NCBI GenBank assembly: GCA_050260105.1
Contig: JBLNBR010000008.1
Coordinates: forward strand, 2,099-66,098
Origin: Ignavibacteriales bacterium
GTDB lineage: Bacteria > Bacillota > Sulfobacillia > JABLXB01
Length of the DNA stretch: 64,000 nucleotides
Reading direction: 5' to 3'
Shown: piece after piece, positions 7,854-64,000 of the stretch
Layout: each line of letters opens with the position of its first letter
Numbering within the stretch: position 1 is the first letter of the stretch
The notes under the pieces: generated by a model
The model's input: the letters and a program-made list of their open reading frames with translations, nothing else
Told to the model about the DNA's origin: nothing
Database searches by the model: none
Program-made: the position numbers and the translations under genes

Positions 7854-9055
7854 AGTCCGCTCTTCCGAGACGGATCCTTGGATACAGAATAGGTGTTGTG
7901 GACGCTCACATCGAGATGGCCGAGCGCGAGTCCGCGGCCCTTGTGTCGCGCGCCCGTGATGACCTTCGTTTTGCCCTCGACGAGCAGGCCGCGTTGACCG
8001 AGCGTTTGTCTGAAAGGCGCAATGAGCTCTCATTGTACGCCGGTCGGAGCCGGTTCTACGAGAAGGCTATGCAGAAGGCCCTCGCCACCGCCGACTACCT
8101 TGTGGAGACTGCGAAGTACAGGGCCGAAACCATGGTGGCGGAGGGCGAGGAGTACGCCGGGGAGCAAAGGCTGCGCCTCATAGAACTCGACAGGGAGATA
8201 GCGGGCGCCCGCCGGGAGATCGAGATGATGCGGCAGGGCGTTAAGCAACTGATGGAGTCCCGTTCCGCCGTAATGCAACACGCGCGATCCTCCAAAGTTG
8301 CCGGCCACATACTGGAAGCGTCCGGCAGAAACGCGCCTTTCACGGCCACCACGTCGAGCGGCTTCCTGGAAGTGGACGTGAGCATTCAGGCGGTCAGGGT
8401 TGTGTCCCAGGACGGAGAGGAGATAGGACGCGTCCGGAGCCTGGTTCTGGACAAAACGAAGGACAGGGTATGCGGCTATGAAATTGAGCCGCAAGGCCCC
8501 GAGTCTCCCCTGAAGTCTCCGGCGATAGTCCCGTCGAGCGCTGTGATCGCGGTGAAGCGCGACGCACTCCTCGTGCACAGCAGCTGGGTGAGAGAACTCA
8601 GGCGTGTTCCCGCCCCCGCCGAGATGGAATCGCAGGTGCCTTCCTCAGAGACGCGGTCGAACCCCGTGGAGCCGAGGATCGGGGTCGATCTGCTCGAAAG
8701 GATTCGCGCAACCGTTCCGTCCGTGTCGCCTGCCGCAGTGCCTGCAATCGCCGGCCTTGCCGGTGGAACCAGTTCACCGGCCGCATCAACCCAGGTTGTG
8801 GCGGCTGAACCGGCCCCGGCGCCCGAAAGCGAGGCGGTGTCTCAGATCGGCTCACGGCGCATGAAGTATCTGGTCGGCAGGATCTCCGGCACCGATATTC
8901 GTGATCCGGACGGCGCACTGATCGTGGCCAAAGGCGGCACCATCACGGCCGAGATCGTGGACCGGGCAAGGTCCGCGGGCAAACTCGCGGAGCTGATCGT
9001 GAACATGACAATCCCGGGCCTCAACCCCGATGGAGAGTCTACCAGCGACTCATAG
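7850..9055 (+). CDS. DivIVA-domain protein with extended C-terminal region (two beta-rich repeats plus a Pro/Ala/Ser linker)
   Basis: N-terminus RRILGYRIGVVDAHI is DivIVA-like, then coiled coil. The C-terminus has two related segments: VRVVSQDGEEIGRVRSLVLDK and YLVGRISGTDIRDPDGALIVAKGGTIT. Overlaps upstream gene by 4 nt. Confidence 0.6.
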   Translation: MKSALPRRILGYRIGVVDAHIEMAERESAALVSRARDDLRFALDEQAALTERLSERRNELSLYAGRSRFYEKAMQKALATADYLVETAKYRAETMVAEGEEYAGEQRLRLIELDREIAGARREIEMMRQGVKQLMESRSAVMQHARSSKVAGHILEASGRNAPFTATTSSGFLEVDVSIQAVRVVSQDGEEIGRVRSLVLDKTKDRVCGYEIEPQGPESPLKSPAIVPSSAVIAVKRDALLVHSSWVRELRRVPAPAEMESQVPSSETRSNPVEPRIGVDLLERIRATVPSVSPAAVPAIAGLAGGTSSPAASTQVVAAEPAPAPESEAVSQIGSRRMKYLVGRISGTDIRDPDGALIVAKGGTITAEIVDRARSAGKLAELIVNMTIPGLNPDGESTSDS

Positions 9056-9079
9056 GTCTGGCTTGTTGGAGAGGCTGAA

Positions 9080-10654
9080 ATGACCGGGGAACACACAGAT
9101 CTGAGCGCGCTGGCGCGTGAGGTGGCGGAGAGGACCAGGTTCCCGCGTGACTGCTACGAGGTGGCTGCCGTTCTCGAGTCGATGGCCTGGACAGACGCCC
9201 TCGCACTCGAACGCTTCGGATTCGAGGATGTGTTCGAGCTCGCCAGCGCAGTCTTCGGGATGATCCCCAGGATAACCGCGGAATCCGCCGCCCGCCCCGA
9301 TAGAACCCCGGTATGGTTGGTACTACTGGTCATGGTCAAGCAATTCCTCCGTGGGATCATGTTCGCGATGCCGATGGCGATTTCTATCATCGCCATGCTC
9401 ACGATAAGGTATTCGCTCTGGTCCTACCAGTACTTCTCCGTCGAGAACGCCACGGCCATCGCGATCGGCACGGCGATGAGTTTCGTCGCCACGGGAGGCT
9501 TCACGCAGGCGATAGCCAGGCGGGGCCTGATGTACATTTCGCAGAATGAATACGGCCTCGCCAGGAGACTCTCATTCAATATCGTGCTGATTGGTGTTGT
9601 CGCCACGCTTGTTCTCGGGGCAGTCATGTTCCTGCTCAACCTGGCGTTCGCCGTTTTCCCCTGGAGCATGGCGTGGTTCACCTTCATATACTACCTGTTT
9701 CTATCGGCGATCTGGCTGTCAATCACGATCCTGTACATGCTCCGCAGGGAAGTCCTGTTCACCCTGGTGATGGCGGCCGGTATCGGGCTGGTGGTCCTCC
9801 TGCACGAATTCCTGCGCCTTACGATCATCGTCTCACAGATACTTGCTCTCTCGGTAACCGCTGGGGTATCGCTATCCCTGGCCACATACCTGTTCCTCTC
9901 CGCGGAGAGGCGAAGCGAATCGGGTCTCGAGGCAGCTCCGCTCCCGCGAGCCTCGCTTGTCGTGTATACCAGCGTTCCGTATTTCGTCTACGGCGTGCTG
10001 TACTTCTCGTTTCTGTATCTCGACAGGATCATAAGCTGGTCGACGAACGACGTGTACATGCCATACGTCATATGGTTTCGCGGACAATACGAACTGGGGC
10101 TGGACTGGGCGATTCTCGCCATCATCATCCCCATGGGCGCGGTGGAAATGATACTCGAGCAGTTTGTGGGGAGCCTCCTGAAGTCCGAGAAGGCTACCTC
10201 CGGCGCCGAATCGCGGCAATTCGGCCGGATGTACGTGAAGACATACACCAGGCAGATGGCGCTTTACCTCGCGCTGTCCGCGCTGAGTGGATACCTTCTG
10301 CATTCGGCCATCCTGCACGTGGAAAACCTGAGGATGTTCGAGGTGTACGTCTCGGGTGACCGCGTTTCATGGATTGTCTTCAACTGGTCGCTGATCGCCT
10401 ATGTGCTGTTGGCGGCCGGCCTGCTCAACTCGCTGATGCTATTCTGTCTTTCGAGGCCGGAGATGGCGGTGCGGGCGATTTCGTCGGCAGTACTGGTGGA
10501 TTTCGTCGTGGGCTTCGTTTGCAGCCGGCTCCTGGGTTACTACTGGGCAGTAGCCGGTCTCGTCGTCGGAGCCGCTGTCTTCGCGGTTACGGGTTCGAGG
10601 CAGGTTTTCAGGGTGTTGCGCAATCTCGATTATTACTATTACGCGTCACTCTAG
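9080..10654 (+). CDS. Polytopic integral membrane protein (about 12 TM segments) with ~60-aa cytoplasmic N-domain; possible polysaccharide polymerase or exporter component
   Basis: Hydrophobic periodicity throughout. Long uninterrupted ORF inside the operon. No family signature recognised. Confidence 0.55.
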   Translation: MTGEHTDLSALAREVAERTRFPRDCYEVAAVLESMAWTDALALERFGFEDVFELASAVFGMIPRITAESAARPDRTPVWLVLLVMVKQFLRGIMFAMPMAISIIAMLTIRYSLWSYQYFSVENATAIAIGTAMSFVATGGFTQAIARRGLMYISQNEYGLARRLSFNIVLIGVVATLVLGAVMFLLNLAFAVFPWSMAWFTFIYYLFLSAIWLSITILYMLRREVLFTLVMAAGIGLVVLLHEFLRLTIIVSQILALSVTAGVSLSLATYLFLSAERRSESGLEAAPLPRASLVVYTSVPYFVYGVLYFSFLYLDRIISWSTNDVYMPYVIWFRGQYELGLDWAILAIIIPMGAVEMILEQFVGSLLKSEKATSGAESRQFGRMYVKTYTRQMALYLALSALSGYLLHSAILHVENLRMFEVYVSGDRVSWIVFNWSLIAYVLLAAGLLNSLMLFCLSRPEMAVRAISSAVLVDFVVGFVCSRLLGYYWAVAGLVVGAAVFAVTGSRQVFRVLRNLDYYYYASL

Positions 10655-10709
10655 CGGCCGTCCGGCCTGCCGGGCCGTCCGGCGTTGGCCGGGCGGTCTG
10701 TGATGGGGG

Positions 10710-12698
10710 ATGGACTTGTACAACAGCGTGACAATCGCTACGGCGCTGTTCCGGATGGGCCTGTCATTCACCGGCCTGTTCATGGTATTGCCAGCGTTGT
10801 TGTTCAGGAAGGAGCCGGGGGCGCCGGCGCTGGACTCTTTCTACGCCAATTTCGTGAAGATGGTGTTCTTCATCCAGGTGACAACATATGCGCTTGCCGC
10901 TGTCCGCCTGTATGAAGTAATCTCGCTCGTCACGGTCTTCCTTGTGGCGGGCCTGTGGCGGGTAAGGTCATCAATGACCCCGGAACAGGTTCCCCGCGTT
11001 CGATCCATGCTCACGGTCCGCGGCCTGGACCTGGCGGACAGGAGGGTCGGCCTGTCCCACCTGGCCGCTCAGTGCAGGTTGACCATGGCGGCCCATGTCC
11101 GGGGTGTGTGTGTGGCGATGCGCGATAGGCTGAACCTCTTCGACTCGCTTGCGCTGTTCGCCACGCTCGGATACGCTGCCTACCTGCGGTTCCTCGACTC
11201 GATCGTCAACGCGGCCCCCGCCATGTCCGACTCTTATGTGACGCTGGCATGGATGAAATACATCGAGCGCCGCCAACTGTTTCACGATGGGATTTACCCG
11301 CACGGGTTTCACATATGGCTGTCGGTCCTGCACAAGTTCTCCGCCATCGACGCCCTGTTCGTGCTCAAATACGCCGGACCGTTCAACTCCGTGTTGACAA
11401 CGCTGTCATGCTACTACTTCGTATCGAGGATGACGGAAAACCCCCTGGCCGGCGTATGTTCGGCGTTCGCATACGGCTGCCTGCCCTCTTTCATGCCCTA
11501 CGAGTTCCAGCGTCAGGCGGCCACCAACTCACAGGAGTTCGCGATGCTGTTCCTGCTGCCGGCCGTTGTGTTCGTCGTGAGGTACCTGAGGCAGGGATCG
11601 CCCCGGGATCTCGCGGCCGCCTTCTGCGCGATCGGCGTCACGGGGTTGACTCACCCCGTGGTGACGCTGTTCGCGGTTGCTGGAGCGTTTGCCGCCGTCT
11701 GCGCAAGCGTGTTTTCGCTTTCGACCGGTTTTCGCAGGCTCGTGCGGATGGCCGGCGCCGGCATCGGGGCGGGGGGCGTGGCGTGCGTCCCGCTGGCCGC
11801 CGGACTGGCGGCGGGCATACCCTTTCACGGTTCATCGGCCGAATTCGCAGTCGCTGAAGGGGTGGCCTCTATACCCGTTGTCCAGCGCCTGCACGCCGCA
11901 GCACTTGTTGCCGGTCTGGCGGGGTGCCTGCTGTGCGCCGTGCTGGCGAGATCACGTCAGTCGCGCGCTGGTTTTCTCTGTTGCGGCTTTCTTGTCTTGG
12001 GATCGGTGTTGGTTTACATGGCGCCCGCTTTCGGGGTCCAGAACCTTGCGCTCTCCGCACGGTCCGGCGAGGTGTATGCCCTGGGGTTGTGCGTGGCTCT
12101 CGGCGCAGTGATTTCCGCGGCGGTACCGCGGGGATCCCTCGGAAGGCGCTGGTTTGTGGTTGCCTGGGGGTGGCTCACTCGAGCGGGGGTCGCAGGGCTC
12201 GCTGCGGCGGTGTTGATGCTGTTCCCCCAGTCGCCCGCCCGTCCATACAAGATGCAGACGAACGAAAGTGCGGAACAGTACATTCGCATCCTGCTCACGG
12301 ACACCCCGACCGATTGGCTCATCGTTTCCGACTTCGAGGGCTATTCTTTGGTGCTGGGGCGGGGCTGGCACTTGATGACTGGGGATTTCGTGCGGCAGGT
12401 GGACCCGTCGGGTGAGAAGCTGGAGATCGTGCAGAACGGGGTGTCGTCGCCCCTCGAGATGTCGAGGATCTACCTGTTCTACGAGGAGAACCCGTACAAG
12501 CCTCCCATCGAGGAGGCCATTCCTGAATACGAACGCAAGGTGGTGGACCAGCGCCGCCTCGCGGAATGGATAGCGAAATACGAGGCTCATCACGGGCCGC
12601 TGAAGGTGTATCACAGGGGGCCGGCTCTGACGATCTATGTCATAGAGCGTTCACCGGATAAGCGTAAGGAATTCGAGAGGATATGGGGCGATGCGTAA
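10710..12698 (+). CDS. Large polytopic membrane protein, GT-C-like/YfhO-like putative glycosyltransferase or polymerase (paralog 1)
   Basis: Multi-TM N-terminal two-thirds plus a soluble C-domain. Shares blocks with the next gene (DSYVTLAWMKYIERRQLFHDGIYPHGFH; RQAATNSQEFAMLFLLP; LGRGWH). Confidence 0.6.
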   Translation: MDLYNSVTIATALFRMGLSFTGLFMVLPALLFRKEPGAPALDSFYANFVKMVFFIQVTTYALAAVRLYEVISLVTVFLVAGLWRVRSSMTPEQVPRVRSMLTVRGLDLADRRVGLSHLAAQCRLTMAAHVRGVCVAMRDRLNLFDSLALFATLGYAAYLRFLDSIVNAAPAMSDSYVTLAWMKYIERRQLFHDGIYPHGFHIWLSVLHKFSAIDALFVLKYAGPFNSVLTTLSCYYFVSRMTENPLAGVCSAFAYGCLPSFMPYEFQRQAATNSQEFAMLFLLPAVVFVVRYLRQGSPRDLAAAFCAIGVTGLTHPVVTLFAVAGAFAAVCASVFSLSTGFRRLVRMAGAGIGAGGVACVPLAAGLAAGIPFHGSSAEFAVAEGVASIPVVQRLHAAALVAGLAGCLLCAVLARSRQSRAGFLCCGFLVLGSVLVYMAPAFGVQNLALSARSGEVYALGLCVALGAVISAAVPRGSLGRRWFVVAWGWLTRAGVAGLAAAVLMLFPQSPARPYKMQTNESAEQYIRILLTDTPTDWLIVSDFEGYSLVLGRGWHLMTGDFVRQVDPSGEKLEIVQNGVSSPLEMSRIYLFYEENPYKPPIEEAIPEYERKVVDQRRLAEWIAKYEAHHGPLKVYHRGPALTIYVIERSPDKRKEFERIWGDA

Positions 12699-57579: not shown

Positions 57580-59559
57580 ATGAGCAAAGTTGTGGGGATA
57601 GACCTTGGCACCACCAACTCCGTCATTGCCGTGATGGAGGCCGGCAAGCCGACCGTGATCATCAACACGGAAGGGTCCCGGCTCACCCCTTCGGTCGTGG
57701 CTTTCACCAGGACCGGAGAGCAACTGGTGGGCCAGCTTGCGCGGAGACAAGCGGTGCTCAACCCGGAAAACACGGTTTATTCTATCAAGCGTTTCATGGG
57801 GCGCAGGTACGACGAGGTCGCTGAAGAGCGAAAACGCGTCCCGTACCGCGTCACGGCGGGCAGCAACAACGAAGCCAGGGTGCACATTCCCGCCGCCAAC
57901 AGGGACCTGACTCCTGAAGAGATTTCCGCCATGATCCTCCGGAAGATGAAAGAGGACGCCGAGAAATACCTTGGCGAGACGATAACGAAGGCGGTCATCA
58001 CCGTGCCCGCCTACTTCAATGACTCCCAGCGCCAGGCGACGAAGGACGCTGGACGGATCGCCGGGCTCGAGGTGCTGCGGATCATCAATGAACCGACGGC
58101 CGCCTCGCTGGCCTACGGCATGGATAAGAAAAAGAACCAGACGATACTCGTCTGGGACCTCGGCGGCGGGACATTCGACGTGTCCGTGCTAGAGGTGGGG
58201 GATGGCGTGTTCGAGGTGAAATCGACCTCCGGCGACACGCACCTCGGCGGCGACGACTACGACCAGCGGGTAGTCGGTTACATCGCGGACCAGTTCATGA
58301 GGGACCAGGGGATTGACCTGCGGAAGGACCGCCAGGCCCTTCAGCGATTGATCGAAGCCTCCGAGAAGGCCAAGATCGAGCTATCGCAGGTATTCGAGAC
58401 GAACATCAGCTTGCCGTTTATCACCGCGGATCAGTCGGGCCCCAAGCACCTCGAATACAAGCTCACACGGGCCAAGTTCGAAGAGATCACCGCCGACCTG
58501 ACGGACAGGTGTGTCGGGCCGTTCAGGCAGGCGCTCAGTGACGCCAAGTTGACAGCCCAGCAGCTCGACGAGGTGATTCTGGTCGGCGGCGCGACGAGGA
58601 TGCCCGTCATCCAGGACCTCGTCAAGAAGCTCACGGGCAAAGAACCCAACAGGAGCGTCAACCCTGACGAAGTGGTGGCGGTGGGCGCCGCCATCCAGGC
58701 CGGCGTACTCGCGGGCGAGGTCAAGGACATTGTCCTGCTCGACGTCACCCCGCTCACACTCGGGCTCGAAACACTCGGCGGCGTGGCGACACCGCTCATC
58801 CCGCGCAACACGACGATCCCGACGAAGAAGAGCGAGATCTTCACCACGGCCGCGGACGGGCAGGATACTGTCGAAATCCACGTGCTGCAGGGCGAGAGGC
58901 CCATGGCGCGCGACAACCGCACGCTCGGCCGGTTCCACTTGCAAGGGATACCCCCTGCTCCGCGCGGCGTTCCCAAGATCGAGGTGACGTTCGATATCGA
59001 TGCCAACGGCATCCTCAATGTCGCCGCGAAGGACCTGGCTACGAACAAGGAGCAGAGGATTACCCTCACCGCTTCGACGCAGTTGACCAGGGACCAAGTG
59101 GAGAATCTGGTGCAAGAGGCGCAGAAGCACGCTGAGGAGGACGCCAAGGCGCGCGAGGCAGTCGAGGCCAAGAACAGGGCCGATAACCTCATCTACAACG
59201 TGGAGAAGAACCTGAAGGAAGTGGGCGACAGGCTGCCGCCCGCGGACAAATCCAACGTGGAGAACGCGATCAAGAACCTCCGGGAGGCGCTCAGCTCGAA
59301 CGACACCGAGCGGATCAAGAAGGCCACTGACGAACTGCAACAGGCCTCGTACAAGGTCGCCGAGGAATTGTACAGGAAGGCCGGCCCGCAGCCAGGGGCA
59401 GGCGGTACCCCCGGCGAGGCCGGAGGCGCGCCCGGCGCATCCGGTGCTCCGGGTGCGGGGCCCGGCGGCCCCGGGGTAGGTGGGCCTGGAGCAGGGGGCC
59501 CCGGCCAGCAGGGCAATGTATACGATGCTGAATACAAAGAGAAGAAGGACGATAAGTGA
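57580..59559 (+). CDS. dnaK: Molecular chaperone DnaK (Hsp70)
   Basis: [20 protein letters not shown] and the Gly/Pro-rich C-terminal tail. Confidence 0.97.
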
Positions 59560-60287
59560 TGGTCGATCCCGAGGCGAAGAACGGGGATAAGCACGACATA
59601 GCAGGCGAAGGCGCAAACGGGGCGGCCGGCGGCGGGCCGGCTACCGTCACGGGTGCGGATGCGAGCGCCGGTGCGAGTGCGGGCGCGGGGACGAGTGGCG
59701 AGGCCGGCGTTGCCGGAGAGAACGCCAGGTTGCGCGAGGAAATCGCCTCGCTGAAACGCAAGGCCGACGAGAACTGGGACCTATTCCTAAGGTCTCGGGC
59801 CGACCTGGACAACTACCGGAAGCGGACCGAGCGGGATATCGCGATGATGGTGCGTATGGGGAAGAGGGACCTGCTCCTGAAGCTCGTCGAAATAGCCGAC
59901 AATTTCCAGAGGGCGCTTGCTGCATCAACCGCTGACGCAGCGTCCCTGAAGTCGGGACTGGAGATGTTGTCCCGGCAGCTCGACGGCGTGCTTGACGCGG
60001 AGGGGGTCAAGCCGATACCGGCGGTGGGCGAGAAGTTCAACCCCGCCCTGCACGAAGCCATCGCCACGTGGGTCTCTCAGGATGTGAAGGACGATACCGT
60101 GACAGACGAGATCCAGAGGGGCTATACGTACCAGGGGGATGTGCTGCGCGTGGCCAGAGTCAGGGTCGCGCAGCCCGCCGCGGGTACGCAGCCAGTCGGG
60201 GGGACGCAGCCAGCAGCGGGCCAGCCTGCCTCGCAGCCGGCTCGCAGCCAGGCCACGGCGCAGTCTGCCTCCGATGAGCCTGAATAG
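59556..60287 (+). CDS. grpE: Nucleotide exchange factor GrpE (low-complexity N- and C-terminal extensions)
   Basis: [37 protein letters not shown]. The start overlaps the dnaK stop (GTGATG). Confidence 0.9.
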
Positions 60288-60354: not shown

Positions 60355-60891
60355 TTAGCGGTTTTCCGGGGGGTTATCCAGGAGTATCTCGGCCAGCCAC
60401 CGGGCGGCGTTGCCCACTACCGACGGACACTTGTCGCTGTGGCCCCCCGCCTCATCGAATGCCTTTCTGTCTTCGGTATCCAGGAGGTTGAACGATCTAC
60501 CCATCAGCCTCGTCTGGACATCCTTGCACAATACGCTCCCGTACTCCTCCTCGAATTTCTGCCAGAGGTTGCGCCCGAATTGACTCGCATGGCGAGCCCT
60601 GTCGTTCATCGGGAAGTGCTCCCGGTCGCGGCCGTAATAGTACCCTATGGCGATGACCGCGCCTGAGAGGGCCCCACAGGGGCCGGCCCCCGTTACACAC
60701 ATCCCAGCCGAAAGGGCGCTCCCCGCCTTGAAAACTTCGCCCGGGAGGCCGAACAAGTCCTGGATCGCGCCCAGGACGCACTGCGCGCAGCCCCTGTTGG
60801 TACTCTCGTACTCAAAGCCGAGATTGTAGGCCTTCTGGAGGATCTCCGCCCTGCTCATCTGAGAGTGGAGTTTGGGTGCTTCCGTACCCAC
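60355..60891 (-). CDS. C_GCAxxG_C_C-family putative redox-active protein
   Basis: NRGCAQCVLGAI matches the C-GCAxxG-C-C motif. Confidence 0.75.
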   Translation of the reverse strand: MGTEAPKLHSQMSRAEILQKAYNLGFEYESTNRGCAQCVLGAIQDLFGLPGEVFKAGSALSAGMCVTGAGPCGALSGAVIAIGYYYGRDREHFPMNDRARHASQFGRNLWQKFEEEYGSVLCKDVQTRLMGRSFNLLDTEDRKAFDEAGGHSDKCPSVVGNAARWLAEILLDNPPENR

Positions 60892-61059: not shown

Positions 61060-61088
61060 TTGACGATGCTGGGGAGTTTCGCTATAAT
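61060..61088 (+). promoter_or_regulatory. Consensus sigma-70 promoter TTGACG-N17-TATAAT driving the tRNA-Pro gene
   Basis: Read directly. The -10 ends about 36 nt before the tRNA 5' end. Confidence 0.7.
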
Positions 61089-61124
61089 GATGATGCAGTT
61101 CAACAGCATAGTCTTCAGCCAAGT

Positions 61125-61202
61125 CGGGGCGTAGCGCAGTTTGGCTAGCGCGCATGGTTCGGGACCATGAGGTCGGTGGTTCAAGTCCACTCGCCCCGAC
61201 CA
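61125..61202 (+). tRNA. tRNA-Pro (anticodon CGG), CCA encoded
   Basis: Cloverleaf folds by hand. Acceptor CGGGGCG/CGCCCCG, D-stem GCGC, anticodon stem CATGG/CCATG with loop TTCGGGA, T-arm GGTGG-TTCAAGT-CCACT, discriminator A plus CCA. Confidence 0.85.
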
Positions 61203-61275
61203 TTTTATTGCCCATTTCCGGTGGAAGAAAGTGGTTGGCGGAGACCGTTTTACTGCAATCTTACTGCAACCAGAC

Positions 61276-62487
61276 CTAAGAGCTCATCTGGGTGGGAGCG
61301 TCAACAGCGAGGATGCTATCCAGTCTTCGAGCCGCCCGCTCCTTGAGACCCATTATCACGTGGCTGTATGTATCAAGGGTGGTAGTAATGTTCGTGTGGC
61401 CAAGCAGCTCCTGCACGACTTTGGGGTGTTCGCCCGCCTCCAGTAGCTGCGTAGCATAGGTATGGCGCAAGGCATGGAAGGAAACGTGAGGTAGTCCGGC
61501 CTTGGCAAGTACGGATTCGAACCGGTGCCCAAAGTTTGTGGGGTCGAGAGGGTTGCCGTTCTCGGCGGCAAAAACGAGGTTCTGATCGTCGTACGCGCCC
61601 CCCAGGAGGATTCTCTCCTCCAACTGGCGACGTCTATGATGCCTGAGGGCTTCAATGGCTGCCTTAGGAATGGGGAGCGTTCTCTTCGATTTCTCCGTCT
61701 TGGGTTCCTGAAATACCAGGGCAGTACGCCTGTCCGCCGAATCCTGAGCGTACACTCGTTCCAGCGACCGGGTGACTCTGACAAGGCCGCGTTCGAGGTC
61801 CACATCGCTCCACCTAAGGGCGAGAATCTCGCCGCGCCGCAACCCTGACCCAATAGCAAGAACGAACGCAGCGTAAAGCCTGTGGTTCCGTACGGTCTTC
61901 AGAAGATGCTGAATTTCCGATGTCGTCAGGGGTCTTATCTCTCTTCTCTTCCGCTTTGGGAGTTTCACTGCTTCGGCGGGGTTCCTGGGAATGAGCTGCT
62001 CCCTAACAGCCTGCTTAAGGGCTCCGTAGATGATCGTATGCATGTTGCGCACTGACTTTGGAGACAGCCCTCCGCGCCCGTCAACTCTGCCATTCTGCAG
62101 TCTCTCATTGATGAACCCCTGCAGATGGCTAGGCTGGAGTCGGCGCAACTGGATTGAGCCTAGCCCTGGCTTTATGTGACGGCGGATCATGGTCTCATAA
62201 GAGTCCCGAGTGCAAGGACTAACGTTGTCTCGCACATACTTCTTGAACCAAAGATCGAACCAATCGCCTACAGTTGTGGTAGTCGGTTCCACAAAGACCC
62301 CCGAGTCCAGTTCGGCCAGGACCCTGGTGAGTTTTTCCTTGACCTCCATCCGGGTCCTGCCGTAGAGAGTCATTCGCTTGATCTTGCCAGTTTCAGGATC
62401 CCTTCCCACGGTGGCCTGAGCCATCCACCGACCGTCGGGGCGCTGAACAATCGTCCCTTCCCCTGATCCCCTTCGTTTCCTGGCCAA
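61276..62487 (-). mobile_element. int: Tyrosine-type site-specific integrase (phage/ICE integrase family), TTG start; 3' end 74 nt from the tRNA-Pro 3' end
   Basis: N-terminus ARKRRGSGEGTIVQRPDGRW (integrase SAM-like N-domain). Catalytic C-domain: R in LRRGEILALRW, HALRHTYAT, and nucleophile Y in TLDTYSHV. RBS AAAAGGAGGG precedes the TTG. Flank is low GC. Confidence 0.85.
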
Positions 62488-62787
62488 GGGCCAACCCTCC
62501 TTTTCTGGTCGCGGTATCCTATGGCAGGATATTCGCCATCCAAGCAGGGATTCCTTGGAGAAAACGAACATATGTTTGGATATATCGAATTTTTCCTCCC
62601 AAGAAAAAAGGGCGCGGTGTTTTGAGAGCCTGTGGCCCAAGGTATTGCGCAAAACTGCGCTTGGCATAACAATTGCGCCCTGAACCAGATAGTCCTCGCA
62701 CCCCACCGCAGCTATCGCGCAATTCCGCAGGAATAGGCAGTTGAGAGCTGAAATAGCAGAGTGTAACCAGAATGAGAGCAAGTTAGA

Positions 62788-63795
62788 ATGCCGAGTCTAA
62801 ACATGCAAAGGACGGTCGCGCGGTGTACGGTGAGCTTCATGAACGGAATTGACGGCCTTCTCACGTCGAGAACAGCGTCTCTTCTGGAAGAGGCGAAATC
62901 GCTTGCTAGAGACAAGTCTATAGCATTTCGAGTGATGCAGGATGAAGTTCTCCTCAAGACGTCGGCTGGAGCGGCGGCCACAGAGACGCCAGAGGAGGGG
63001 ATTGTGATACATCTAGATCCATCAAGGGCCACGGAAATGGCCGTTGCTCATGAGCTGCTCCATGTAATCATCCATTATTCGGGCTGGCCACAAATGTACG
63101 GGATGATTGGCTTGGACCGCATAGCCAAGAGATTTGCGGATGCCATTGACAATACTCTCGATCATCATGTCTTCAATCCCCGGCTGAAGGAAATGGGCTT
63201 CGACCTCGACTCCTACTATCAGTGGAGGGTCAAGTGCCTTGACGATTGGCCCGTAGCAGACCGAACCGGACCTAGACTTGTAGTCAATGCCGCCAATATC
63301 CTTGACACCATGCTCTTCGGAAAGGCTTACCGCGAAGCGGCGATCCGAGTGCTAAGGATCAAGCAGCCGAGCGTAGTCGCCATGGCACGCAAGCTCGAGG
63401 GGCTTACTCAACCAGCGAGAAGCCGCACAAGACGTGGGGTAAGGCAGGCCATGGTAGTAACCTTGGATTACCTCAATCGTTGGATGTCTGAACAGACTGG
63501 CCAGCCGGCTTTGCTGCGCCAACGAATAGGAGTCAGCCCCGTGTTCTCATCGGATGAGCTAGCTCGACCAGCCATCGAATTGGTCGAGCTCGTGTCTCAT
63601 CAGGCAACGGTCGAGGACAAGAACCTCTGGATAGTCGCCCTTCAATTGCGTTCTGACAAGGTCCGCTTTAGGACCTACTTGTCTTATGACGAAAGGGAAC
63701 CAACCGACGCCAAGAAGGACTTGCAGCAGAGACTTGCGTCTCTCACTCTCCGAGACCTTCTGCAAACGGAATCCGTGCGCTTCGGCGTTCTGTGA
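62788..63795 (+). CDS. HExxH-motif protein (possible ImmA/IrrE-like metallopeptidase-type regulator) in the integrated element
   Basis: AVAHELLHVIIH contains HExxH. Lower-GC context, divergent from the integrase. Confidence 0.4.
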   Translation: MPSLNMQRTVARCTVSFMNGIDGLLTSRTASLLEEAKSLARDKSIAFRVMQDEVLLKTSAGAAATETPEEGIVIHLDPSRATEMAVAHELLHVIIHYSGWPQMYGMIGLDRIAKRFADAIDNTLDHHVFNPRLKEMGFDLDSYYQWRVKCLDDWPVADRTGPRLVVNAANILDTMLFGKAYREAAIRVLRIKQPSVVAMARKLEGLTQPARSRTRRGVRQAMVVTLDYLNRWMSEQTGQPALLRQRIGVSPVFSSDELARPAIELVELVSHQATVEDKNLWIVALQLRSDKVRFRTYLSYDEREPTDAKKDLQQRLASLTLRDLLQTESVRFGVL

Positions 63796-64000
63796 TTGTG
63801 GAAACGGGCAACTCTGTTTTGCCGGGAAGCCTACGGCCGCTAAAGTCCTCACGAATGCATGGAGGGCTGGCCGGTCCATGTTGGCACCGGAGAATCCCTC
63901 ATCGACATAGATATCGGCCATGGCCTAGTCCTCGGTATCAAGGAAGGTCAGGCGTTGATTCTCCTGGGCGGAGATAGACAAACCTTCCGGGACCTGATGC
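63796..64000 (-). pseudogene. Serine recombinase (resolvase/invertase-family) N-terminal remnant interrupted by an in-frame TAG; continues beyond window
   Basis: Minus-strand frame reads …VPEGLSISAQENQRLTFLDTED*AMADIYVDEGFSGANMDRPALHAFV, matching resolvase catalytic-domain motifs (…SIDAQ…RL… and Y.DEG.SG…DRP.L). Similarity is lost downstream, where the HExxH gene occupies the other strand. Confidence 0.4.

Follow-up and report, generated by a model that had tools for sequence, protein, structure and literature searches.

A tyrosine integrase gene that ends just past a tRNA gene raises the question of whether the DNA beyond the tRNA was acquired by integration and, if so, what kind of element it derives from. 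We addressed this question at the right end of a 64,000-nucleotide stretch of bacterial DNA (hereafter the window), where a tRNA-Pro(CGG) gene is followed by an integrase and a gene for an HExxH-motif protein (Table 1). An earlier note on this DNA had read the locus as an element integrated at tRNA-Pro(CGG), and this reading is supported by a break in synteny with a relative, an intact integrase, integrase homologues that face tRNA genes and a shift in base composition. We consider that the DNA from about position 61205 rightwards is probably a mobile-element-derived genomic island integrated in the 3' end of the tRNA gene.

Table 1. Features at the right end of the window (strand "." where neither strand applies).
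Feature	Position	Strand	Details
Sigma-70-type promoter of the tRNA gene	61060..61088	+	TTGACG-N17-TATAAT; consensus match at 11/12 positions
tRNA-Pro(CGG), intact, encoded CCA end	61125..61202	+	ARAGORN; Rfam RF00005, 62.6 bits
Left junction (putative attL core region)	61175..61211	.	window/L002 alignment break
Two TTACTGCAA copies, 11 bp apart	61250..61269	+	between tRNA and integrase stop; candidate arm-type sites
Tyrosine integrase, 403 aa	61276..62487	-	TTG start 8 nt after AAGGAGG, with Shine-Dalgarno AGGAGG; PF00589, PF14659, phrog_1
Divergent integrase/HExxH intergenic region	62488..62838	.	G+C 0.51 overall
HExxH protein, 318 aa	62839..63795	+	alternative starts 62788 (335 aa) and 62803
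Serine-recombinase N-terminal remnant (pseudogene)	63826..64000	-	continues to ~64041; in-frame TAG; ends after ~70 residues

The target tRNA gene and the left junction

The tRNA-Pro(CGG) gene is well supported as the integration target, and an Rfam scan of 58-64 kb returned nothing besides it. Its promoter, present as the earlier note had described it, is host DNA and lies outside the island. Promoter-like sites occur in this region at about chance level, with one in the 3.2 kb searched against a mean of 1.3 in shuffled sequence. In a related Bacillota metagenome-assembled genome (L002), both hexamers are identical and the 36-nt leader is kept while the spacer has diverged, which is a stronger sign of promoter function than the consensus match itself.

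The same genome carries the dnaK-grpE-C_GCAxxG-promoter-tRNA block found in the window. Nucleotide identity between the two is approximately 77%, the flanking genes share 75-84% of their amino acids, and the tRNA genes are 100% identical. The window follows L002 up to position 61204; the first mismatch is at 61205 and similarity is lost past approximately 61211, placing the break 2-9 nt after the tRNA. Within the 9.6 kb that follow its tRNA, L002 contains no integrase, no HExxH gene and nothing matching window positions 61210-64297; the genes there, among them a YbjN-like 130-aa ORF and an SDR gene, are unrelated. The earlier note had proposed a comparison with relatives, and the absence of the integrase and HExxH genes is seen in this one genome, the only syntenic relative found. 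Since similarity breaks off just past the tRNA and L002 is free of an integrase, there is good support for an insertion at this tRNA end. An independent Logan contig (L001) starts at 61175, exactly 30 nt before 61205. This is the start expected for a branch at 61205 in an assembly graph with k=31.

TTACTGCAA is present in only two copies in the 64 kb, where 0.14 would be expected, and both lie in the interval separating the tRNA from the integrase stop codon. Similar paired short direct repeats occur between integrase stop and tRNA in three integrase homologue loci (L012, L016 and L018). We consider the pair to be candidate arm-type sites, to which the integrase would bind.

A second copy of the tRNA 3'-end stretch GGTTCAAGTCCACTCGCCCCGACCATT would mark the right attachment site, attR. 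The sequence available beyond the window comes from a 3,123-bp Logan contig, which adds 297 bp and extends to 64297. Up to that position, a 25-mer of the tRNA 3' end, searched with up to three mismatches, was found in the tRNA itself only. No match of at least 10 nt to the tRNA 3' end occurs in 61216-64297, and a general repeat search of the region found only short pairs at chance level. A 20-mer taken from the tRNA end had no match in IMG/VR, and no attR was found within 10 kb in L012. As the tRNA end is not repeated up to 64297, the right end of the island is not delimited. This agrees with the earlier placement of the right boundary outside the window; the rightward search for a repeat of the tRNA 3' end, which the earlier note had suggested as a check, came back empty over the added 297 bp.

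The integrase and the composition of the probable island

The integrase ORF encodes a product identical to NCBI protein MGE5483792.1 and, judged by its sequence, is intact and phage-type. It matches PF00589 (9e-33, 113.9 bits) and PF14659 (3e-14, 53.4 bits), weakly matches Arm-DNA-bind_4, and falls into phrog_1 of the PHROGs collection (4e-90). The catalytic set is complete, with R217, a K near 266, H338-x-x-R341, H364 and Y374. Its stop codon starts 74 nt past the tRNA 3' end, so that 73 nt separate the two convergent genes; the earlier note was exact in describing a 403-aa tyrosine integrase that ends at this distance on the opposite strand.

The nearest homologues of the integrase belong to Bacillota, with 55% identity, and the best matches in a phage genome collection reach 37-39%. 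Each of the four closest homologues examined, with 52-55% identity, faces a tRNA gene; the two genes converge at the tRNA 3' end, with gaps of 114-177 nt. The closest, protein P0006 of L012 (55% identity), faces tRNA-Val, as does the homologue in L020, while those in L016 and in L018 (Moorella sp. E308F, 52% identity) face tRNA-Lys. A more distant homologue (L023) faces tRNA-Leu. This clade of Bacillota integrases consistently targets tRNA 3' ends, and the present locus documents one further integration site at tRNA-Pro(CGG).

The G+C content of 61210-64000 is 0.549, compared with 0.608 in the rest of the window. The third codon positions of the integrase and HExxH genes (GC3 0.61-0.63) fall in the low tail of the host ORFs (0.74 +/- 0.07), a composition shift of approximately 1.5-1.7 SD only. 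The lowest G+C of any 300 bp in the window, 0.483, is found at 62513-62812, within the divergent intergenic region, where we detected no Rfam match and, in a promoter scan, no consensus promoter. Stretches of 0.49-0.50 also occur in other parts of the window, which makes the drop a genuine but modest one. The earlier note had described it as a sharp fall at 62.4-62.8 kb.

Could the integrase and HExxH genes be long-resident chromosomal genes, and L002 differ because its lineage lost them or underwent a rearrangement? The comparison involves a single relative, distant enough for the amino-acid divergence given above, and the shift in G+C is modest, both of which would be compatible with such a history. 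We nevertheless regard it as highly improbable, as it would have to account for a break exactly at the tRNA 3' end, an integrase clade that is habitually associated with tRNA genes, low GC3 in both genes, an adjacent recombinase pseudogene, and an HExxH family that is sporadic and appears in a new context each time. Integration at the tRNA remains our preferred reading.

The HExxH protein

The HExxH ORF contains AVAHELLHVIIH and is divergent from the integrase, as the earlier note had stated. A word-indexed search made the protein appear to be an orphan, a status overturned by a full HMMER scan of 1.8 billion proteins, which identified 69 cluster representatives at E <= 1e-3. Family members are approximately 320 aa long. 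A highly divergent alignment of 27 sequences has H71, E72 and H75 as invariant residues. The window protein has no match in Pfam, NCBIfam, PHROGs or PADLOC, a tblastn search of phage and plasmid collections found nothing, and no relative was detected in a scan of IMG/VR. A metagenome scan for the family yielded one partial locus.

The AlphaFold2 model of the protein is confident (pLDDT 94.7, and 91.9 for the N-terminal domain modelled separately). In it, the HExxH motif is predicted to lie on a helix that comes after a beta-sheet, an arrangement also seen in zincins. Neither the full nor the N-terminal model had a Foldseek match in the PDB at E <= 1e-3; the best match to a zincin was selecase (4qhi, E = 0.1). 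A profile search of PDB sequences with the family also found nothing. We therefore assign the protein to an uncharacterised family of predicted cytoplasmic, stand-alone zinc metallopeptidases, whose peptidase activity is presumed from the motif and the predicted fold. A two-gene system was considered and rejected, because the homologues do not share a conserved neighbour.

Within the loci examined, the family is sporadic and its context differs each time. One homologue lies beside an MkoC-like helicase (L007) and another beside Schlafen/AlbA_2 and trypsin-like genes (L010). A further reading is that the family comprises new three-domain cytoplasmic zincins. Its genes would be stand-alone cargo carried by mobile or by defence islands, and the proteins would serve in phage defence or as proteases triggered by stress. 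We consider this unlikely. PADLOC detected no known defence gene in the visible part of the island.

The earlier note had likened the protein to anti-repressors of the ImmA/IrrE type, metallopeptidases that would cleave the repressor of the element and so induce its excision. The invariant HExxH motif and its zincin-like placement would be compatible with this role, as would the position of the gene next to the integrase. In addition, four of 30 family members have sub-threshold matches to PF06114 (best 7.7e-4), and in the protein the peptidase domain is followed by additional C-terminal domains, as it is in IrrE (PMC6868357). However, HExxH is common to all zincins and hence does not discriminate for ImmA/IrrE, and equally many family members weakly match eCIS_core or DA1-like profiles, so the PF06114 signal is generic to zincins. 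The window protein itself has no PF06114 (Peptidase_M78) match at E <= 0.1. In hhalign, the comparison with Rir of TP-J34 reached a probability of 3% and that with the L018 M78 protein one of 1.7%, both being members of COG2856/M78, with alignments limited to the HExxH helix. IrrE was also absent from the top 50 Foldseek matches listed for either model.

Gene context argues in the same direction. The function of COG2856 proteins is defined by an XRE partner, the adjacent XRE-family repressor being the substrate (PMC6868357). No XRE or HTH gene accompanies the HExxH gene in the window, nor its homologues in L007, L008, L010, L011 and L014. None of the homologues examined adjoins an integrase, and the window gene is divergent from its integrase rather than arranged in the order immR-immA-int. 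Lacking a PF06114 match, a fold match to IrrE, an XRE partner and this gene order, the protein is very unlikely to be such an anti-repressor, and we do not uphold that part of the earlier note.

A probable mosaic island and its known counterparts

Immediately downstream of the HExxH gene lies the remnant of a serine recombinase. Two joined pieces of it match PF00239 (Resolvase) with 26.0 bits (gathering threshold 23.3), covering positions 4-60 of the 145 in the model. The catalytic domain is incomplete, and the remnant is a pseudogene. Besides it and the HExxH gene, the island contains at least one further ORF. In the visible 3.1 kb we found no gene for an excisionase, a repressor, a phage function or conjugation, and specifically no ORF with an HTH_17 (Xis-like) or XRE domain was found in 62488-64297. 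A pseudogene, together with the lack of an excisionase or repressor near the integrase, makes a mosaic, partly decayed island likelier than a pristine prophage or integrative and conjugative element (ICE), and suggests that the DNA right of the tRNA is such an island.

The island may yet be the left end of a prophage or ICE/IME that is complete and has kept its mobility, with its regulatory, excision and structural or transfer modules to the right of 64297 and with the HExxH gene and the remnant as accessory cargo (morons) near attL. We consider this possible, though doubtful. Both the integrase and the attL-like layout are preserved intact, and relatives of the integrase with 39-53% identity are located terminally in predicted proviruses of IMG/VR. 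The Logan break at the junction would fit a mixture of occupied and empty sites; it could equally be caused by the identical tRNA of a related organism in the same sample. Conversely, L012, L016 and L018 each have a Xis/HTH_17 or XRE/M78 gene adjoining the integrase, which the window does not. The recombinase pseudogene only 35 nt past the HExxH gene, the absence of phage and conjugation genes from the visible 3.1 kb, and an HExxH family that is not represented in the phage, plasmid and IMG/VR collections also speak against a complete element.

For the mosaic island, we propose that the integrase, aided by arm-type sites near the core, would have recombined the chromosomal tRNA gene with an attP in which the tRNA 3' end is reproduced. 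The reaction would follow the established lambda-type pathway and would regenerate an intact tRNA-Pro(CGG). The resulting attL would consist of the tRNA 3' end, the putative arm-type repeats and then the integrase gene. The predicted zinc metallopeptidase, the serine-recombinase remnant and the further ORF or ORFs would make up the visible cargo. When and in which direction the island would have integrated is presumptive, as is any present mobility.

An island at a tRNA gene is in itself routine, and the HExxH protein is the sole part of this one with some wider value. Its small family has no model in Pfam, NCBIfam, PHROGs or PADLOC and no solved structural relative, yet a very confidently predicted fold, and would reasonably merit an entry of its own and biochemical study.

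Among known systems, the locus resembles lambda/P4-type elements, prophages and genomic islands alike, that target the 3' end of tRNA genes. It shares with them the Phage_int_SAM_3 and Phage_integrase domains with the full catalytic set, an integrase that is convergent with an intact tRNA gene at a distance of a few tens of nucleotides, short direct repeats between core and integrase, lower G+C content and absence from a syntenic relative. It differs in showing no excisionase in its visible part and no attR up to 64297, so that the right end of the island would lie further on. The nearest database relative of its integrase has only 55% identity.

In the immR-immA-int arrangement of the ICEBs1 type, exemplified by L018, an HExxH gene also adjoins a tRNA-targeting integrase that belongs to this clade. 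The peptidase of L018, however, has 152 aa and a PF06114 match of 24.3 (gathering score 22), and its gene comes after one for an HTH_3 repressor and points the same way as the integrase, whereas the 318-aa window protein has no PF06114 match and no repressor partner, and its gene is divergent. The island at tRNA-Val in L012, which carries defence genes, is another counterpart. It has the closest integrase, the same geometry of integrase and tRNA, and accessory cargo that is likewise of a non-phage kind, namely a type I restriction-modification system and GmrSD. In L012, an HTH_17 (Xis-like) gene is divergent from the integrase at the position that the HExxH gene occupies in the window.

The tRNA-Pro locus and its counterpart in a relative

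The earlier note proposed an element integrated at tRNA-Pro(CGG), and the tRNA, promoter, integrase, HExxH protein and low-G+C stretch that it described are all present in the window. Taken together, the evidence supports a feature of an ordinary kind, a genomic island that sits at a tRNA gene and has a tyrosine integrase of the phage type. A break in similarity to a related genome, an integrase clade that targets tRNA genes and base composition all speak for insertion, whereas attR was not found up to position 64297.

Features at the tRNA-Pro locus, and of the loci that contain homologues of its two genes
Feature	Position	Strand	Details
C_GCAxxG_C_C putative redox-active protein	60355-60891	-	PF09719, 2.8e-24; final host gene ahead of the tRNA
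Promoter TTGACG-N17-TATAAT	61060-61088	+	Hexamer scan; upstream of tRNA-Pro(CGG)
tRNA-Pro(CGG)	61125-61202	+	ARAGORN; Rfam 62.6 bits
Tyrosine integrase, 403 aa	61276-62487	-	TTG start at 62487 behind AAGGAGG; exactly NCBI protein MGE5483792.1
HExxH protein, 318 aa	62839-63795	+	Divergent from the integrase across 351 bp; contains AVAHELLHVIIH
Serine-recombinase N-terminal pseudogene	63826-64000, on to ~64041 in L001	-	MRVAAATHVRGSTEHQVPEGLSISAQENQRLTFLDTED (stop) AMADIYVDEGFSGANMDRPALHAFV
Integrase homologue, L012			Faces tRNA-Val(CAC)
Integrase homologue, L016			Faces tRNA-Lys(TTT)
Integrase homologue, L018			Faces tRNA-Lys(CTT)
Integrase homologue, L020			Faces tRNA-Val(GAC)
HExxH homologue, L007/L008			Adjoins MkoC-like helicase
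HExxH homologue, L010	3554-4480		Adjoins Schlafen/AlbA_2 and trypsin-like (Trypsin_2) genes, upstream; rve-family IS alongside
HExxH homologue, L011			Adjoins SASP-glmU-prs-pth-mfd

With the adjacent C_GCAxxG protein as query, a scan of the GTDB representative genomes yielded a single close relative, the Bacillota MAG L002. It has the same order of dnaK, grpE, C_GCAxxG gene (73-75% identity), promoter and tRNA-Pro(CGG), and its tRNA is 100% identical to that of the window, where ARAGORN found this tRNA only. Chance alone would give about one promoter match of this quality in the 3.2 kb that were scanned. Still, L002 has exactly the same two hexamers and leader despite a diverged spacer, which supports a real promoter. 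The two sequences remain identical through the CCA end and the following TT (61204); the first mismatch is at 61205, and no similarity remains beyond ~61211. The next 9.6 kb of L002 encode a YbjN-like protein, an SDR, a PRD-type regulator and PTS components, and contain neither an integrase nor any match to the window or its 297-bp extension. For this single relative, the comparison suggested as a check in the earlier note agrees with an insertion.

In L002, 11 nt of the tRNA 3' end (GCCCCGACCAT) recur 76 nt downstream of tRNA-Pro, at ~9575-9585 (minus-strand sense), where they fall in the 3'-terminal part of the YbjN-like ORF. Chance could explain this copy, as could an earlier integration or excision at this site that left a scar.

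The extension comes from a Logan contig of run SRR24035586 (L001), which covers 61175-64297 and starts exactly 30 nt before 61205. In a k=31 de Bruijn assembly, a branch at 61205 yields a contig start 30 nt earlier, so the sample contains a second molecule with the same tRNA end but a different continuation. The candidates for it are attR, an empty site or just a relative's tRNA, and the break therefore lends weak support to an insertion. The right end of L001 lies inside an ORF of no assigned function, and both ends may be assembly-graph branches from strain variation or repeats.

At 57580-60287, dnaK precedes grpE with a 4-nt overlap, whereas grpE usually comes first; L002 shares the dnaK-grpE order of the window. 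The window's DnaK has a long Gly/Pro/Ala-rich tail ahead of its C-terminus. In NCBI, the source MAG carries the name 'Ignavibacteriales bacterium'. Yet synteny was found with a Bacillota MAG only (84% and 76% amino-acid identity for dnaK and grpE), all integrase relatives are from Bacillota and the window has a G+C content of ~0.60. These sequences raise doubt about the taxonomic label or about how the contig was binned.

Base composition and the integrase clade

The "sharp" G+C drop reported at 62.4-62.8 kb is real, as the 300-bp minimum of the window (0.483) falls in the 351-bp intergenic region between the integrase and HExxH genes, yet it is modest because values of 0.49-0.50 occur elsewhere in the window too. 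The overall shift is more telling: G+C is 0.549 in 61210-64000 versus 0.608 in the rest of the window, and GC3 is 0.61-0.63 for the two genes versus 0.74 ± 0.07 for other ORFs.

The integrase contains Phage_int_SAM_3 and Phage_integrase domains (Pfam), has a complete set of catalytic residues and matches phrog_1 'integrase' at 4e-90 (PHROGs). Its nearest homologues (50-55% identity) are from Moorella, Thermoanaerobacter, Pelotomaculum and other Bacillota. Of the homologues with readable context, the closest four all run convergently towards the 3' end of a tRNA gene, 114-177 nt away, and a 43% identical integrase (L023) faces tRNA-Leu. Within the window's 73-nt tRNA-integrase spacer, TTACTGCAA occurs twice, 11 bp apart, at 61250-61269, with no other copies in the 64 kb. 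Paired short repeats between integrase stop and tRNA were also found in L012 (GGTTACGA-like), L016 (GTTGTTGTAG) and L018 (GTAGTAGTA). The TTACTGCAA pair probably represents candidate arm-type integrase-binding sites of attL, consistent with a weak Arm-DNA-bind_4 match in the integrase.

The HExxH protein

No match to the HExxH protein was found in Pfam, NCBIfam, PHROGs or PADLOC, nor any relative in phage, plasmid or IMG/VR collections, and a word-indexed search returned only the protein itself. Searching 1.84 billion cluster representatives with HMMER identified 69 relatives at E <= 1e-3, including 29 at E <= 1e-30, mostly of about 310-335 aa. H71, E72 and H75 are invariant in the family alignment, inside AHE[LIV]MHxxLxRxGWP, and a DNxxDH-like motif follows ~30 residues downstream on the next helix. 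AlphaFold2 with this alignment produced a confident model (pLDDT 94.7, pTM 0.92) of three parts: an N-terminal beta-sheet with the active-site helix (zincin-like), a helical middle and a C-terminal alpha/beta domain. With Foldseek, neither the whole model nor its N-terminal domain by itself matched a PDB structure at E <= 1e-3; among zincins, the minimal gluzincin selecase came closest (E = 0.1). One uncharacterised viral protein in BFVD matched the model (A0A8S5RCI0, E = 1.5e-6, target-normalised TM 0.71). This unannotated family, with a confident predicted fold that lacks a solved relative, is the only mildly novel item here.

The resemblance to ImmA/IrrE-type metallopeptidases suggested in the earlier note did not hold up. 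Sub-threshold Pfam matches in the family were scattered over Peptidase_M78 (4/30), eCIS_core (4/30) and DA1-like (3/30), which reads as a generic zincin signal. With hhalign, probabilities were 3% against TP-J34 Rir and 1.7% against the M78 protein of L018, and only the HExxH helix aligned. IrrE was absent among the top 50 Foldseek matches listed for both the whole model and the N-terminal domain. The XRE repressor on which a COG2856 protein acts is encoded next to it (PMC6868357), and no such partner lies beside the window's HExxH gene. We conclude that the protein does not belong to the ImmA/IrrE family and that an ImmA-like role is very unlikely. Among the homologue loci examined, we found no integrase or HTH gene beside the HExxH gene and no conserved neighbour. 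Most likely, the protein is a predicted stand-alone cytoplasmic zinc peptidase carried as cargo.

The context in L010, a JGI contig, resembles a defence island; its HExxH-family gene is split into 230-aa and 96-aa pieces by a frameshift or sequencing error.

Right end and state of the probable island

Extending the sequence rightwards, as had been proposed for locating attR, did not reveal it: 61216-64297 shares no stretch of at least 10 nt with the tRNA 3' end, and the window has no second copy of the tRNA 3' half (25-mer, up to three mismatches). The NCBI contig is 66,486 bp long, leaving at most ~2.5 kb of further sequence in that assembly.

A serine-recombinase remnant lies 35 nt past the HExxH stop codon, on the minus strand; a TAG interrupts its frame, and it is truncated at ~70 residues. 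Its joined pieces match PF00239 Resolvase at 26 bits, above the gathering score, over model positions 4-60 of 145 only. The same strand carries, upstream of this remnant, the C-terminal end of another ORF, which runs off L001. The pseudogene suggests that an older or nested mobile element adjoins the integrase island. The 1.8 kb beyond the window's integrase contain no HTH_17, HTH_3 or Peptidase_M78 gene. Because of this pseudogene and the lack of a regulatory or excision gene in that stretch, a mosaic, partly decayed island is somewhat favoured over an intact prophage or ICE, judged on the visible part; the rest could change the balance.

Among the integrase homologues, an HTH_17 (Xis-like) gene adjoins the integrase in L012 and L016, and in L018, from Moorella sp. 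E308F, an HTH_3 repressor and a genuine Peptidase_M78 protein (24.3 bits, exceeding the gathering score) lie directly upstream of it. The latter locus (8965-11212) is a textbook XRE repressor-Peptidase_M78-integrase module at its tRNA gene, and additionally has DUF927/DUF3854 (primase-like) and PIN/RHH genes. The Moorella element is a useful reference for the clade of the window's integrase.
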